This document shows, piece by piece, positions 2 to 33,610 of a DNA stretch of 64,000 nt. The translations under genes were made by a program, and so were the position numbers. Where the stretch lies: NCBI GenBank assembly GCA_963803145.1, contig CAWDLW010000008.1:256001-320000 (forward strand), given 5' to 3'. This stretch comes from Methanotrichaceae archaeon (GTDB taxonomy: Archaea; Halobacteriota; Methanosarcinia; Methanotrichales; Methanotrichaceae). Position 1 is the stretch's first letter; each line of letters opens with the position of its first letter. Below the pieces are notes generated by a model that saw only the letters and a program-made list of their open reading frames with translations, ran no database searches and was not told the DNA's origin.

Positions 2-1210
2 TGTATTGGGCTGTCCGGTCTCGAAACGTGGCTTGATGAAAAAGGCAGCGACCCTGATGCCGATAAGAGGCTAAAGGGCATTTATACCCAAATAGAAAAA
101 GTGGCCGGAGATCTGGCCGAAGATGTGACGGCTCTGAATGCAGCGAGTCCAGATAAGGAAGCTCCTCCCAGGCTTCAAAAGGCAGGTCTCGCAGCAAGAG
201 ATGCAGTTGCCAGCCAGATAAATACTCTCTCTGGAAAGCTAACCCCGCCCGAGGAATTTGAAGCAGCAAATGCAGCCGAATATCACTCGAGCCTTGTCAA
301 AACATTAGGAAAGACTGTTACGATGTTTGGGCGATCTCAGCAGTTTGTCGCAGCCCTCTTTCCTAAAGAGGCAGAAAGCATCAATGCGAGACTTAACACG
401 CTAAGCCATCTGATTGTTGAACTCGATAAGGAGATAGGCAAAAGGCGTGAAATTGTAGACGAGGTCAAGACGTCCAAAGAACTCCTGCAAAGGCTCCGAA
501 AGGAGTGCGCAAAAATAAACGATCTCAACAGCAGTATTCGCAGCAAGGAAGAAACGCTCGCAGAACTTCGGGATTCAGCCAGGCATCTTCAGGAAGAGCT
601 GGAAATGCTGGCATCTAGCGACGAAGGTCGAGAAGCCCAGAACCTAAAGACGGAGCTAAGCGAAAGTAGAAATGAGCTAAGCCGGATAGAAGCACAAATG
701 GCGGATTTGATTGCTCCTCTGAATAAGGCGATAGCCAGGATAGTGAAGCAAGATGCAAGCGATAGGCTTAGTCTCGATCATAGGAAGGCTTTCGAGCTGC
801 TGTCTAAATCGCCGGCAGAGGCTCTGGATAATGATATCACTGAGCCACTCCGGGAGCTGAAATCCAAAATTGACCTTCTTGGGATAAAGGACAAAAAACG
901 AGAGAAAATCGCTGAGCAAATCGATTGCCTTATCAGAGAGAAGCCGCTTGTTGCTCTCAAGGCAAAGCACTCTCTAGTCCAAAAGCAGATAAACAATTTG
1001 CAGGAAATGCTTCAAAAAAGCAGCCTGAAGACTTTTAAGCTTGAAGAGGAACAGAGGCGGATAAACGATCAGATCTCCAGGTTTGAAGCCGATCTTGCCC
1101 AGGAGAAGGGACACCTCGTAGCTTTGGAGGAGCGAGCCGCCGGAGATAAAGCCGAACTACTCGCAAAGATGGAAGAGCTGGCTGGCAGACCCGTTGAGAT
1201 TGATTTTTGA
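2..1210 (+). CDS. Long coiled-coil hypothetical protein (5'-partial)
   Basis: Frame is open from base 2 to the stop at 1210; E/K/L-rich heptad pattern; no catalytic motif recognised. Confidence 0.6.
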   Translation, partial: CIGLSGLETWLDEKGSDPDADKRLKGIYTQIEKVAGDLAEDVTALNAASPDKEAPPRLQKAGLAARDAVASQINTLSGKLTPPEEFEAANAAEYHSSLVKTLGKTVTMFGRSQQFVAALFPKEAESINARLNTLSHLIVELDKEIGKRREIVDEVKTSKELLQRLRKECAKINDLNSSIRSKEETLAELRDSARHLQEELEMLASSDEGREAQNLKTELSESRNELSRIEAQMADLIAPLNKAIARIVKQDASDRLSLDHRKAFELLSKSPAEALDNDITEPLRELKSKIDLLGIKDKKREKIAEQIDCLIREKPLVALKAKHSLVQKQINNLQEMLQKSSLKTFKLEEEQRRINDQISRFEADLAQEKGHLVALEERAAGDKAELLAKMEELAGRPVEIDF

Positions 1211-22193: not shown

Positions 22194-22919
22194 GTGATAG
22201 TAAGATTTAGATTAGACGGAAAAGTTTGCGGTGGATCTCTGAGCGGAGAGCGGATTGTCTCAGGCGGCGAGATATACAACCTTCAGGATGTAGAGCTGCT
22301 TGCGCCTTCTTCGCCTAGCAAAGTCGTTTGCATTGGGCTCAACTATAGAGAGCACGCAAATGAGCTCAATATGAAGCTTCCCGACGAGCCGATAATATTT
22401 CTCAAACCGCCATCAGCGGTTCTTGATCCGGGGAAGGATATCATCTATCCCAAATCCAGCAGTCAAGTAGATTATGAGGGCGAACTTGGCGTGGTGATCG
22501 GGAAGAGGTGTAAGAACGCCAAGGCAGAGGATTATGCTGAATACATTTTAGGTTATACTTGCTTCAATGATGTTACAGCACGCGATCTGCAGAAAAAGGA
22601 TGGCCAGTGGACACGTGCGAAAAGCTTCGATACCTTTGCGCCCTTCGGCCCATGGATCGCTGAGATTGATCCCTTAGACGCAAAAATTCAGACGCGCGTC
22701 AATGGAAGCGTTAAGCAGAAATCAAACACGTCCGATTTGATCTTTAATGTGCCAAAGCTGATCGAGTTCATCAGCGGAATCATGACGCTGCAGCCTGGAG
22801 ATGTTATTGCTACAGGAACCCCGCCAGGGGTCGGACCACTTCAAAAGGGTGATGTGGTTGAGGTGGAGATAGAGGGAATAGGAGTTTTGAAAAATTCTGT
22901 TGCTCTTGTTGCTCTTTGA
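22194..22919 (+). CDS. Fumarylacetoacetate hydrolase family protein
   Basis: CIGLNY, DYEGEL, NDVTARD, KSFDT, TGTPPGV. Confidence 0.9.
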   Translation: MIVRFRLDGKVCGGSLSGERIVSGGEIYNLQDVELLAPSSPSKVVCIGLNYREHANELNMKLPDEPIIFLKPPSAVLDPGKDIIYPKSSSQVDYEGELGVVIGKRCKNAKAEDYAEYILGYTCFNDVTARDLQKKDGQWTRAKSFDTFAPFGPWIAEIDPLDAKIQTRVNGSVKQKSNTSDLIFNVPKLIEFISGIMTLQPGDVIATGTPPGVGPLQKGDVVEVEIEGIGVLKNSVALVAL

Positions 22920-23068
22920 TTGCTTTCTTTTTCTATAGTTTTCAGATCGCTTCGAAATATCCATCGCTTCTATTTCCTGCCCTATGGACTATTATCAGCT
23001 CTCCAATCAGCTCTCCAAATTTGTAATACTTTGATATACAAGTAATACTATTACGGTTTTGGTGGTTA

Positions 23069-23296
23069 ATTATCACTACATCTGTTTCCATAAGAATCCC
23101 AGATGATCTAGCACGTAGCTTAGAAAACCTTGCTAAAACGATAGAGCGTCCCAAAACCTACATAATTCGAAAGGCTATTGAGGAATATCTGGAGGAGTAT
23201 GCGGATTACCTGATAGCTCTGGAGAGGTTAAATGATAAGAATGACAGGATAGTCTCTAGCGATGAGATGAGGGACCTCCTTGGCATACAGGATTGA
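23069..23296 (+). CDS. RelB-like ribbon-helix-helix antitoxin (not in ORF track; only ATT/ATC start available)
   Basis: TTSVSIRIPDDLARSLENLAKTIERPKTYIIRKAIEEYLEEYADYLIALERL..; GGTGG SD at 23061; overlaps the relE start. Confidence 0.75.
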   Translation: MITTSVSIRIPDDLARSLENLAKTIERPKTYIIRKAIEEYLEEYADYLIALERLNDKNDRIVSSDEMRDLLGIQD

Positions 23297-23540
23297 ATGT
23301 GACTTCCTCCCTTTCCCCTAAAGGGGAAGGGCTTCCTGCTTCAACGATTGGCTATTGCCATATCTCGACAGGCTCACCCCCTCAGTCCGAGGGTGCGGTT
23401 CCCGTTCTTAGAACGGTTAAGGTCGTCACTCAGCGTTCCAGGTTTTACATATAGGGCTTCCCTATACAACCAGATACCGTGAGTTCAGAGCAACTCTGCA
23501 AAGTAGCATTTTCAGCTTCCAGCGCAGACTTGACCTGATT
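23279..23540 (-). ncRNA. Putative TnpB-type omega/reRNA scaffold plus flank-derived guide
   Basis: TATA-like ctatatattt near 23560 on the minus strand, several perfect hairpins, 3' end resembling IS605 right-end RNA (GAAGCAGGAAGCCC..GGAAGTCAC). Confidence 0.5.
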
Positions 23541-23890
23541 AGGAGATTATCATGATCAAATATATAGCTAATCCTGACAGCGAAAGTAATTCTGGAAAGC
23601 GTATGTCATTCGTCCCGTCCCTTGAAAGGGATGGGTCTTCTGCCTGCTTTCCCTATAAGTACTCTGTCTCCTACGATCTAAAACATTTGGATAAGAGCAT
23701 TGCCAAGAGACTTATAAAAGATCTGGAGACTGCTTTATCCAGCAACCCACACTGCGGCGAATCTCTCTCGGGCCAGTTTAAAGGTATGTTTAAGCTACGC
23801 ATAGGAGATTATCGAGTCATTTATTCAAAAACCAAGGAAGGCGTTTTGATACTTCGGATAAGGCATCGCAGTGCCGTATATGAAAGATAA
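23280..23890 (+). pseudogene. relE: RelE/ParE toxin split by a 356-bp insertion
   Basis: TTG-AYRIE (23280-23298) joins in frame to YKYSVSYDLK..FKLRIGDYRVIY..RHRSAVYER after removing 23299-23654. Confidence 0.85.
23299..23654 (-). mobile_element. Non-autonomous IS200/IS605-family element with no tnpA or tnpB
   Basis: Subterminal hairpins 23309-23331 and 23614-23635; TTAT directly 5' of the left end and ..GGAAGTCAC right end on the minus strand; no TSD. Confidence 0.8.
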
Positions 23891-23970
23891 CAAATATAAT
23901 TCAAAACCTACACTTTCATCTGGCGCTAAAACTATTGGCCTTATTAGCGCGCTCAGTCGCTGCGCGGACT
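23889..23970 (+). repeat. DGR-VR-like repeat, copy A (partial)
   Basis: gcta-aaactattggccttatt-agcgcgctcagtcgc. Confidence 0.7.
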
Positions 23971-24032
23971 TAAAGGGATTGCAATTTTAGGGATTATGAA
24001 TCGGATCCACTGTTACATTGCTTTTTGCGCCG

Positions 24033-24170
24033 ACTAATAATTCAAAGCCCGCATTTGCTTCTGGGGCTAACACTAGCGGTTTTCCTAGCGCCCTCAGTCG
24101 CCGGGCGGGCTACCCCTAACCCCTCGCTGGGGGAAGGCTTTGGAGAACGCATGCTAAAAGGTTGAAGGGG
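24033..24170 (+). repeat. DGR-VR-like repeat, copy B
   Basis: gcta-acactagcggttttcct-agcgccctcagtcgccgggcgggctacccctaa-cccctcgctgggggaaggc. Confidence 0.8.
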
Positions 24171-24532
24171 ATAAGATTAACTAATCCCTTAATCTGTTAT
24201 GCCGAGGCGCTAAGGAATTCATTAATATTTAGGAAATCCCCGGGATTCTTATAAATTAATATTTGATTATATTTCAAATCTCGGGTGTGAAATATATACC
24301 TGAAAAGGCAGAAAATTATATTACTAATATAATTAATAATGTGGATGGAGAAGGAAAAAGCACTTGGTCATTATATATCTTCCAAAAGCAATTAAATAAG
24401 CATTTTCATCGAAAATACGAAAAGACCGAGAAAAGATTATTTTGACTTAATTTCTTCGGGGATTTGCCCAAGCCGATCGACATATGCTTCTGCAAGCACG
24501 AATGCCACTGAAAATAGAATACTCCTTATTTA

Positions 24533-25615
24533 TAGTTAATCCACGTAATTTTTACCTCATAGATACCCTTAAATAATTAATATACGATATAGCCGTTCAT
24601 GGGCAGGAAACCTGTAATTGTAAGACATATCTCGAAGGTAGAATTAGATCAATTGTATAAAGATGAGAGAAACATAAGAATTAAAGAACGGCTACTAGCG
24701 ATAATACATTTATACGAAGGAAAGAATGTATATATAGTAGCTGATATTCTTAAACGAAGTGAAAAGACAATAAAGAATTGGCTAAGCGATTGGAACAAAC
24801 AAGGATATGATGGATTGATACCACAGAATAGAAACGGCAAAGAACCAATGATATCTTTTGATGAATGGGATAAAATTATCGAAGAGATTGAGGACAAAGG
24901 AATGACTATAAAAGAGGTAATAAAATATGCAAAAGACACAAGAGGCGTAGAATATTCGTATAAAGGTGGTTGGAAGATTTTAAGATCAATAAAGAAAGTC
25001 AAATATGGTAAACCATATATTAGAAATAATAAGAGGCCTGTTAATGCAGAAAGTTTTCTAAAAAAAGGATAGATTCAGTAATAACAACAGTCAAAGAACC
25101 TATTATTGGATTCCTTGATGAAAGCTCTTTGCAACAGCGACCTAATACACGCAGGGTTTTAAACACCCATATGCTAAATTATCAACCTGGAAAAGTTAGG
25201 TCTAGAACTGTTTTTGGGTTCATTGCATTGAATGGAAATGATGAAGTTATGGTCTCTCACTCATCCAAGAAAGAAGATTTAATGATCTTCGCCCAAAAAT
25301 TGAGAAGTAACAATATTATGAGACCAATATGTATTGTCCTAGATAATGCTAGAATACATCTAGCTAAGAAGTTTAGGGCATTAGCCCACGAACTTGATAT
25401 CCATTTAATATATAACGTGCCATATTCCCCTGATTTAAATCCTATAGAGTTCGGTTGGAAGGATTTTAAAAGAGAGATATCAAAATATACTGATTTTGAT
25501 GAAGCTATTGAGGATGCCCAAGATTGCGCTTTACAAATATTTTATTCCAATAAAGATGGATACTCTAAGTCTTGGATAAAGCAGTTTATAAGGTAAAAAG
25601 TTGGGAGAATGACTA
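24533..25615 (+). mobile_element. IS630-family element, variant 1
   Basis: TA duplication, imperfect IRs tagttaatc/gaatgacta, HTH ORF plus DDE ORF. Confidence 0.9.
24599..25596 (+). CDS. IS630 transposase (two ORFs joined by a -1 shift at A7G)
   Basis: HTH ORF 24599-25072; FLDES..LDNARIH..PYSPDLNPIE in the -1 frame. Confidence 0.85.
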
Positions 25616-29784: not shown

Positions 29785-29880
29785 AGCATGCGTTTTCCAA
29801 AGCCTTCCCCCAGCGAGGGGTTAGGGGCAGCCCGCGCGGCGACTGAGCGCGCTGTAGTCACCGTTATTGTTAGCCCCAAA
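29785..29880 (-). repeat. DGR-VR-like repeat, copy D
   Basis: Reverse complement reads gcta-acaataacggtgactac-agcgcgctcagtcgccgcgcgggctgcccctaa-cccctcgctggggg. Confidence 0.8.
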
Positions 29881-30012
29881 ACGCCCATGACCTTTAAGGC
29901 TCATACATGGCCAATGAAAAACTTGGCATCAACAAAGGTTTTTCATGGGAAAGTAAATATAAGGCAGTTAAATTGTATTAGCAGGTGCAAATGCTACGAG
30001 AAACAAAAGAAG

Positions 30013-31261: not shown

Positions 31262-31375
31262 TTCCAGATCCTTTCCCCAGCGAAGGGTCAGGGGCAGCCT
31301 GCACAGGCGTTGGAGCGCTAGCAAACCCGCAAGTATTAGCCCAGAAGAAAGTGTAGGTTTTAAGTTATCGTAGTC
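31262..31375 (-). repeat. DGR-VR-like repeat, copy E (diverged tail)
   Basis: Reverse complement reads aaaacctacactttcttctgg-gcta-atacttgcgggtttgct-agcgctc..gctgcccctgacccttcgctgggg. Confidence 0.75.
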
Positions 31376-33470: not shown

Positions 33471-33610
33471 CTCCTTTAACCTTATAGCATACGTTTTCCA
33501 AAACCTTCCCCCAGCGAGGGGTTAGGGGCAGCCCGCGCGGCGACTGAGCGCGCTATCGTTGTCGTTAGTATTAGCCCCAGAAGAAAGTATCGTCTCTTAA
33601 TTAGTAGCAA
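33471..33610 (-). repeat. DGR-VR-like repeat, copy F
   Basis: Reverse complement reads gcta-atactaacgacaacgat-agcgcgctcagtcgccgcgcgggctgcccctaa-cccctcgctggggg. Confidence 0.8.

Follow-up and report, generated by a model that had tools for sequence, protein, structure and literature searches.

The subject of this study is a 356-nt insert that interrupts a relE-type toxin gene in a 64,000-nt stretch of DNA (the window), which lies on contig C8 of the 51-contig metagenome-assembled genome (MAG) of a Methanotrichaceae archaeon. In all probability the insert is a non-autonomous derivative of a Methanotrichaceae IS200/IS605 element, that is, a miniature inverted-repeat transposable element (MITE) of the type also known as palindrome-associated transposable element (PATE), which was inserted 3′ of TTAT and is a likely source of omega-RNA. 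Judged from its sequence, it is very likely a stand-alone omega-RNA cassette that could be used in trans. A preliminary description, made from the letters of the stretch only, had proposed an IS200/IS605-type element devoid of open reading frames (ORFs) with a probable TnpB guide RNA, and this proposal found support in the ends that the insert shares with tnpB elements and in a covarying RNA at its right end.

The interrupted relBE-type locus and its empty counterpart

The host locus is a RelBE/ParDE-type type II toxin-antitoxin pair, in which a ribbon-helix-helix (RHH) antitoxin gene overlaps the gene of a RelE/ParE-fold toxin (Table 1). Translation of 23069-23293 matched the Pfam families RHH_1 (E 1.4e-9) and RHH_3 (E 1.3e-8), and relE starts 17 nt inside relB. 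The insertion has broken up relE behind its sixth codon, and relB has stayed intact. The TTG start of the relE stump is at 23280, one base later than the 23279 given in the preliminary description, and is identical to the start of the intact homologue in the same-genus genome G001. As it stands, the frame of the stump enters the insert and terminates after 13 codons. Beyond the insert relE resumes at 23655 with AT AAG TAC TCT ..., which reads Y K Y S V S Y D L when joined to the stump, and the remainder matches ParE_toxin over profile positions 10-89 of 89 (E 1.3e-12).

The site was searched with window 23040-23900 in 105 genomes of the same family. G001 (contig G001:C126) yielded two flank pieces of 92% and 89% identity, which abut at one base and give the empty site ...cttggcatacaggattgaat/ataagtcctctg... 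(...ggattgaat/ataagtcc..., with the stroke at the joint). The RelE encoded there is intact, with 84 residues starting MAYRIEYKSSVTRDLKHL... (MAYRIEYKSSVTRDL...) and a ParE_toxin match at positions 1-89 (E 1.6e-12). It had been predicted that removal of 23299-23654 restores relE, and the G001 site matches that reconstruction exactly; the empty site and the intact RelE thus show it to be correct. Evidently, the insertion is younger than the split from the sister species. The insert cannot be put down to chance, since its site is empty in G001 and both of its ends recur on full-length tnpB elements. Moreover, the filled site was recovered in public sequencing runs, where one sediment-run contig spans 23150-23704 with the insert and a contig from a second study covers the left-end junction, 23619-23753, with 0 differences.

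On the minus strand, TTAT directly precedes the insert, whose last bases, at 23299, are GGAAGTCAC, in fuller reading ...GGGAGGAAGTCAC. Direct reading of the sequence revealed no target-site duplication at either junction, and subterminal imperfect hairpins in place of terminal inverted repeats, as expected of IS200/IS605 elements, were found on both sides. TTAT, the ends, the lack of duplication, the subterminal and the perfect interior hairpins and a TATA-like box had all been reported in the preliminary description, and the sequence confirms each of them.

Besides simple disruption, a remodelled toxin has to be considered. An ATG of the insert at 23552 (behind GGAG), or an in-frame ATG at 23603, would start a RelE of 112 or 95 residues with a foreign N-terminus, which could possibly be toxic. 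Frame 23552-23890 continues in phase into what remains of relE, and residues 42-110 of the resulting fusion match ParE_toxin (E 3.5e-12). Nevertheless, the first nine profile positions, with the N-terminal strand YRIEY of G001 RelE, are replaced, which makes a surviving toxin unlikely. The start is located in a portion of the insert that other copies lack, an open run of 34 codons in one of three frames could easily arise by chance, and no promoter was identified on the + strand. Taken together, these points render a remodelled toxin quite improbable.

The relB gene shows a peculiarity of its own. Its frame contains 0 in-frame ATG, GTG or TTG starts, hence its absence from the list of canonical-start ORFs, and between the upstream stop at 23024-23026 and the RHH domain none of the three codons is present. 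The relB of G001 (locus L039) is likewise methionine-less, with the translation ...WFWWFIISTSVSIRIP.... The gene may have an unusual start codon, or its translation may start leaderless.

Table 1. Coordinates of the insert, its parts and the interrupted toxin-antitoxin genes in the window
Feature	Position	Strand	Remarks
ORF-less IS200/IS605 derivative (MITE/PATE), 356 nt	23299..23654	-	defined by junctions, shared ends and empty site
TTAT target motif / target-adjacent motif (TAM)	23655..23658	-	adjoins left end 5′; ATAA on + strand
Left end	23579..23654	-	begins AGGGAAAGCAGGCAGAAGACCC; matches left ends of C15:12311-13615 and C8:511539-512861 (85% over 74 nt)
Left-end subterminal hairpin	23614-23635	-	sequence read directly
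Former tnpB promoter, TATA box	23558..23569	-	AGCTATATATTT
Upstream RNA domain, decayed tnpB 3′ coding region	23400..23540	-	contains the three perfect hairpins
Interior perfect hairpins	23402-23416, 23450-23466, 23486-23498		exactly where the preliminary description placed them
Right end with conserved omega-RNA core, ~125 nt	23299..23426	-	three hairpins and long-range helix; ends GGAAGTCAC
Right-end subterminal hairpin	23309..23331	-	CCCTTCCCC TTTA GGGGAAAGGG; compensatory variants in relatives
Would-be omega-RNA guide, 20 nt	23279..23298	-	ATTCAATCCTGTATGCCAAG; directly 3′ of right end
relB-type antitoxin gene, ribbon-helix-helix	23027..23296	+	frame open from 23027; TGA at 23294-23296
relE/ParE-type toxin gene, 5′ stump	23280..23298	+	TTG start, MAYRIE, first base of codon 7
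relE 3′ remainder	23655..23890	+	AT of codon 7, then KYSVSYDL...AVYER and stop
Fusion ORF, 112 residues	23552..23890	+	ATG inside insert, GGAG before ATG, in frame with relE remainder

The tnpB parents and their short derivatives

The closest full-length relatives of the insert reside in the same genome. Two near-identical 1.3-kb elements carrying only tnpB were found at C15:12311-13615 and C8:511539-512861, the latter on the contig of the window. Both have TTAT before them and GGAAGTCAC at their end, and the right end of the insert is 86% identical over 50 nt to either copy. A single ORF of 381 residues, at C15:12433-13575 in the C15 copy, occupies each of them and encodes TnpB, with Pfam matches to OrfB_IS605 (7.8e-28), Cas12f1-like_TNB (2.2e-24) and HTH_OrfB_IS605 (1.4e-14). 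Among solved structures the top match of this protein is an AI-designed nuclease (E 8.5e-71) and the second is the ISDra2-type TnpB (E 1e-61, residues 4-365), its closest natural solved relative. Intact RuvC motifs (DxG, E and DRDxN) are seen in the alignment to the AI-designed nuclease, on which this statement is based. Three further TnpB homologues of the genome, at C8:73335-74450, C2:24678-25778 and C12:19633-20769, are otherwise full-length and contain one in-frame stop each (TAG, TAG and TGA, respectively).

TTAT stands 5′ of the left end in all four own-genome copies (4/4) and in 29 of the 32 left-end motif matches among 74 related loci, as counted by eye. The exceptions are L095:1623, a chance motif match with no left end, and L101 and L153, the last with CTAT. 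Judged by record titles, nearly all of the 74 loci come from Methanothrix or Methanotrichaceae MAGs. At 11 of them tnpB is immediately preceded by a Y1 tnpA of like orientation, and seven of these 11 (L088, L094, L101, L102, L106, L110 and L139) have the same left-end motif ~100 nt before tnpA. The L088 copy, a tnpA+tnpB element of a same-genus genome, has both the left-end and the right-end motif. Copies with both genes, with tnpB only and with no gene thus indicate that the family exists in IS605-type, IS1341-type and gene-less forms. The elements with genes and the same ends, which the preliminary description had suggested to look for, were therefore found, as tnpB-only elements in the own genome and as tnpA+tnpB elements in relatives. 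Two outcomes that would have spoken against the proposal, a lack of tnpB elements with this right end and relE homologues at odds with the reconstructed junction, thus did not materialize.

Comparison with the full-length copies also explains the interior of the insert. The ORF list shows no TnpA- or TnpB-coding ORF there, only frames of 31-53 residues and the start of the fusion ORF, without a separate Pfam scan of these. A decayed TnpB C-terminus was recognized by eye as DLNRSKNGNRTLGLRG, corresponding to DLNASLNIRTLGLRG of TnpB, in a decayed tnpB 3′ end that begins ~115 nt into the insert. An origin of the interior from foreign DNA was considered and rejected, since the interior is this decayed 3′ end, the omega-RNA region. 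The earlier statement that hairpins stand instead of tnpA and tnpB is right in that neither gene is present; the interior itself derives from tnpB. In the full-length copies the same TATA box precedes the ATG of tnpB by ~30 nt, and the left-end homology extends through it. The insert retains the promoter, the last ~240 nt of the tnpB 3′ region with the right end, and both ends, and is thus an internal-deletion derivative. The deletion took out almost all of tnpB and spared the left end with its TATA box together with the ~240 nt of 3′ region and right end.

Short derivatives have also arisen elsewhere in the family. Three copies of 207 nt in genome G095 consist of the left end and the TATA box, followed directly by the ~115-nt core. 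The insert keeps a decayed tnpB 3′ stretch of ~140 nt upstream of the core, whereas the G095 copies keep the core only. Genome G076 harbors a 444-nt derivative in which the first codons of tnpB are fused to the last ones and the TATA box is kept. The TATA box is thus preserved in independently formed short copies of both genomes. Two of the four short copies of G095 and G076 follow TTAT; the others follow TTAC and TGAT. The latter two flanks belong to locus L086 (G095:C44:300-1000), where two 207-nt MITEs, at 106-312 and 390-597, stand 77 nt apart in the same orientation.

A BLAST search with the insert returned 12 places in the own genome (14 at a laxer cut-off), which, the insert apart, are full-length copies or single ends. 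No second short copy with two ends was detected in this genome by BLAST or by the covariance model R1 of the core, which gave 13 matches. Right-end matches that do not coincide with any of the 30 TnpB candidates scored are located on C18 and at C15:267803-267931, C48:1647-1773, C16:96762-96889 and C8:503460-503565; among them that on C18 is exceptional in lying beside a 44-residue TnpB piece. A further 113 nt at C30:390-501 are 73% identical to the upstream RNA domain of the insert (element 121-230), with no right-end core and no ends.

A structured RNA, its guide and its possible use in trans

Alignment A2 covers the last ~125 nt of 37 copies, of which the own genome supplied 6 and relatives 31. 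C8:511539-512861 was left out, as its last 95 nt are identical to those of the C15 copy and its TnpB is 99% identical, and so were L068 and L069, whose right ends are identical to that of L067. Conservation stops exactly at ...GTCAC in all 37 copies, and all downstream flanks differ. RNAalifold predicted a 5′ hairpin, a long-range helix (GCCTG...CAGGA) around a variable hairpin and a terminal right-end hairpin. The structure comprises 19 pairs in 5 helices with 93.3% of cells paired, and 12 pairs have both sides changed (87 cells); these scores are inflated by the kinship of the sequences, and the alignment is the one from which the structure was obtained. None of 500 column shuffles reached any of five measures, and sliding the partners by 1-3 columns lowered pairing to 25-53%. 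The long-range helix switches from G-C to A-U in 11 sequences, and the inner hairpin shows 13-14 double changes. Without a structure, of the RNA or of the single strand, these changes are difficult to account for.

The insert itself retains every helix. Its terminal right-end hairpin differs from those of relatives by compensated changes, and 23279-23535 folded alone gives the same helices at -93.6 kcal/mol (z -3.5). The model R1, which matched 13 places in the own genome, scores the insert at 121.6 bits and the intact copies at 110.4 bits, all of them training members. The upstream domain of ~140 nt has counterparts in genomes G100 and G101, with 72-73% identity over 177 nt and compensatory changes.

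These counterparts deserve mention in their own right. Loci L083 (G100:C12:23100-25400, ~78-540, minus strand) and L084 (G101:C253, ~860-1303) each hold an ORF-less homologue of ~250 nt of the RNA part of the insert, 72-73% identical, with a ~30-nt hairpin insertion and no recognisable left end of the family of the insert. The two genomes represent two species of another genus, and the homologue is situated beside the same membrane-protein gene in both. A gene-less, guide-like RNA at one locus in two species might have been domesticated.

IS200/IS605 elements take their guide from the flank 3′ of the right end, and excision joins the TAM to that flank (Meers et al., PMC10055086). The preliminary description took the RNA to be aimed at the very relE allele that it interrupts. 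The match to the repaired site is real; a special targeting of relE does not follow, because the match is true by construction. Every guide of this kind is the right-end flank and every joint is TAM plus flank, so that the match comes with any IS200/IS605 element and says nothing about relE in particular. No other TTAT-plus-guide site in the own genome has fewer than 4 mismatches in the first 16 nt, and three have exactly 4; five guide-like sites with 2 mismatches each are present without TTAT.

The guide is antisense to the end of relB and the start of relE, and the sequence bears out the earlier remark that the RNA would be antisense to the relB/relE junction, as any transcript leaving the right end is antisense to both genes. 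This property is what a domesticated regulatory RNA would exploit, by an antisense read-out over the 3′ end of relB and the start of relE that would be independent of TnpB. A PATE-derived RNA with a phenotype has been described in Halobacterium (PMC4615843), and the ORF-less homologue retained at one locus in G100 and G101 is in line with such a role. Here the insertion is young, since the sister species lacks it; the broken relE leaves little to regulate; and every such insertion brings antisense read-out with it as a side effect. We therefore consider a regulatory role highly improbable.

For the omega-RNA cassette, the following course is the most likely. The element landed by the usual route of its family, 3′ of TTAT and with no duplication, on the strand opposite to the relBE-type operon. 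The TATA box would drive a minus-strand RNA of ~250 nt from a start near 23530, ~25 nt downstream of the box, and this RNA would cross the scaffold and the right end into the flank to give an omega-RNA with the guide ATTCAATCCTGTATGC(CAAG). The two intact sister elements, of which one lies on the contig of the window, encode a 381-residue TnpB that would bind this omega-RNA in trans, and the loaded TnpB would cut only the TTAT-adjacent empty site, which is the uninterrupted relE.

Several observations weigh against this interpretation. The omega-RNA of the resident intact TnpB copies is unlike that of the insert, with a ~30-nt insertion in the middle hairpin, and the core of the insert is closer to the C12 and C18 copies (82% over 99 nt), of which the C12 tnpB has the in-frame TGA. 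Cross-loading of the insert RNA on the resident TnpB may still be regarded as plausible. No contig from an RNA library covers the insert among the contigs of public runs, from which, as contigs only, absence of a transcript is not inferable. The sole RNA-library contig that touches it, a 151-nt contig of a soil metatranscriptome (X7), matches 23469-23540 with one difference and continues into a diverged TATA-box region; this divergence beyond 23540 assigns X7 to the element of a relative in another habitat, and possible carry-over of DNA means that it is no proof of transcription. No empty-site joint skipping 23299-23654 was seen in the assembled run contigs, which drop rare variants and give this result little weight either way. 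Rfam searches of 22900-24300 at E up to 10 returned sub-threshold matches only, RAGATH-18 with 21.9 bits (cut-off 44.9) and CRISPR-DR57 with 19.1 bits (cut-off 39), and neither was taken as membership. The same search on six related loci gave one sub-threshold match, to HgcC (RF00062) in the sister copy L003 with 28.7 bits against 50; the insert itself shows no HgcC match at E up to 10. Finally, no cognate TnpA was found in the own assembly by Pfam Y1_Tnp or by tblastn with the L088 TnpA, with the proviso that a MAG may lack repeats.

Some of these points would equally suit a dead relic, a true MITE that is now silent or whose RNA is unusable by the resident TnpB, with a relE pseudogene beside an orphan relB as its sole consequence. 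The transcript not seen in run contigs and the cognate TnpA not found in the assembly agree with it, as do the loss of the tnpB reading frame in the upstream domain and the position of the insert as the only two-ended short copy of its family in the genome, with no sign of recent spread. Decay of this kind is at odds with the five covarying helices and invariant core stretches, which are intact (the 121.6 against 110.4 bits of training members given above), with an intact TATA box and with changes of the terminal hairpin that are compensated relative to the relatives. We consider a dead relic less likely than the omega-RNA cassette but give it tentative credence.

The cognate TnpA of relatives has 126 residues (in L088 at 2124-2501), and the Y1 transposases of the own assembly, three identical IS200-type tnpA and one decayed copy, are 32% identical to it. 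The end hairpins of these IS200-type elements are unrelated (CCCCACAGC...GCTGTGGGG), and tblastn with the L088 TnpA gave, in addition, one 29-residue match at C23:58814-58900 (E 0.018). The earlier suggestion that TnpA in trans could reactivate the toxin thus lacks its actor in this assembly. According to the published scheme, TnpB cuts after excision by TnpA, and recombination then restores the element (PMC10055086). With no cognate TnpA in the assembly the excision step cannot run here, and reactivation of the toxin is unlikely. Probably the insert is now immobile and relE is stably disrupted, allowing for repeated elements that a MAG may lack.

A further step would be that the cassette has been kept as a working trans-acting guide gene, which destroys uninterrupted relE alleles by means of the resident TnpB. 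If so, its targets would be relE alleles that arise by excision or by recombination with intact-toxin relatives such as G001, the disrupted allele would act as a small gene drive that keeps the toxin permanently disarmed, and the read-out would also be antisense to relB. We consider such maintenance unlikely.

Other sequences lie close to the locus. Just downstream of relE, window 23896-24200 contains two partial tandem copies of a dispersed repeat of ~140 nt that is unrelated to the TnpB element and recurs at ~29785-29881, 31263-31375 and 33473-33607. BLAST with 23896-24200 gave 135 own-genome matches of 69-88% identity, many of them clustered on C8 and C15. In 24599-25596 (+ strand) two consecutive ORFs of 157 and 155 residues follow, whose translations look like the two halves, helix-turn-helix and catalytic, of a split transposase that belongs to a different IS family.

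Comparison with known systems

The closest natural solved relative of the resident protein is the ISDra2 TnpB, whose motif is TTGAT; the insert differs from it in using TTAT. The cognate TnpB aligns with ISDra2 TnpB in complex with its right-end RNA (8bf8, 8ex9, 8exa and 8h1j; residues 4-365, E 1e-61), and as in ISDra2 the guide RNA would span the 3′ end of tnpB and the right end and continue into the flank.

PATEs are protein-less IS200/IS605 derivatives that were named in Haloquadratum walsbyi (PMC3119063), and PATE-like elements have been noted in Geobacillus stearothermophilus (PMC10055086). Like PATEs, the insert has both IS200/IS605 ends with subterminal hairpins, no protein gene, a position adjacent to the motif and no duplication; it likewise retains a guide-RNA region that would need a TnpB encoded elsewhere. 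Unlike them, it belongs to a host of the Methanotrichaceae and has a scaffold sequence of its own.

Stand-alone omega-RNAs without effector or transposase, in genomes that contain effector loci, have been reported to 'function in trans' (Altae-Tran et al., PMC10691335). The insert resembles these in being a mobilised guide-RNA locus that lacks effector and transposase, with effector loci of the same family in the genome. It differs in that its use in trans is putative and that the scaffold of the resident effector deviates by the ~30-nt hairpin insertion.

The sense overlapping transcripts (sotRNAs) of IS1341-type tnpB genes have been linked to HgcC and to PATE-derived RNA, and transcribed PATE-derived RNA has been described in an archaeon (Gomes-Filho et al., PMC4615843). 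The RNA of the insert family similarly occupies the 3′ end of an IS1341-type tnpB, and its right-end hairpin has the loop UUCA or UUUA. The sister copy L003 aligns with the HgcC model from end to end, including the ...GAGGA.GUCA tail, at the 28.7 bits mentioned above, below the gathering score of 50. This resemblance fits the published link between HgcC, the IS1341 3′ RNA and PATE-RNA (PMC4615843).

Protein-less omega-RNA elements have already been described, and the insert does not change what is known of them. What sets the present case apart is no more than a complete natural series, its host family and a toxin gene as target. The series comprises a filled site, the empty site of a sister species, tnpB-only parents, the tnpA+tnpB form of the same genus and short derivatives. 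The short derivatives all keep the promoter and the RNA core and thereby support the published view that the guide-RNA part survives the shrinkage of elements. With a defined TAM (TTAT), a scaffold and a TnpB, the locus provides what a testable Methanotrichaceae system of this kind requires.

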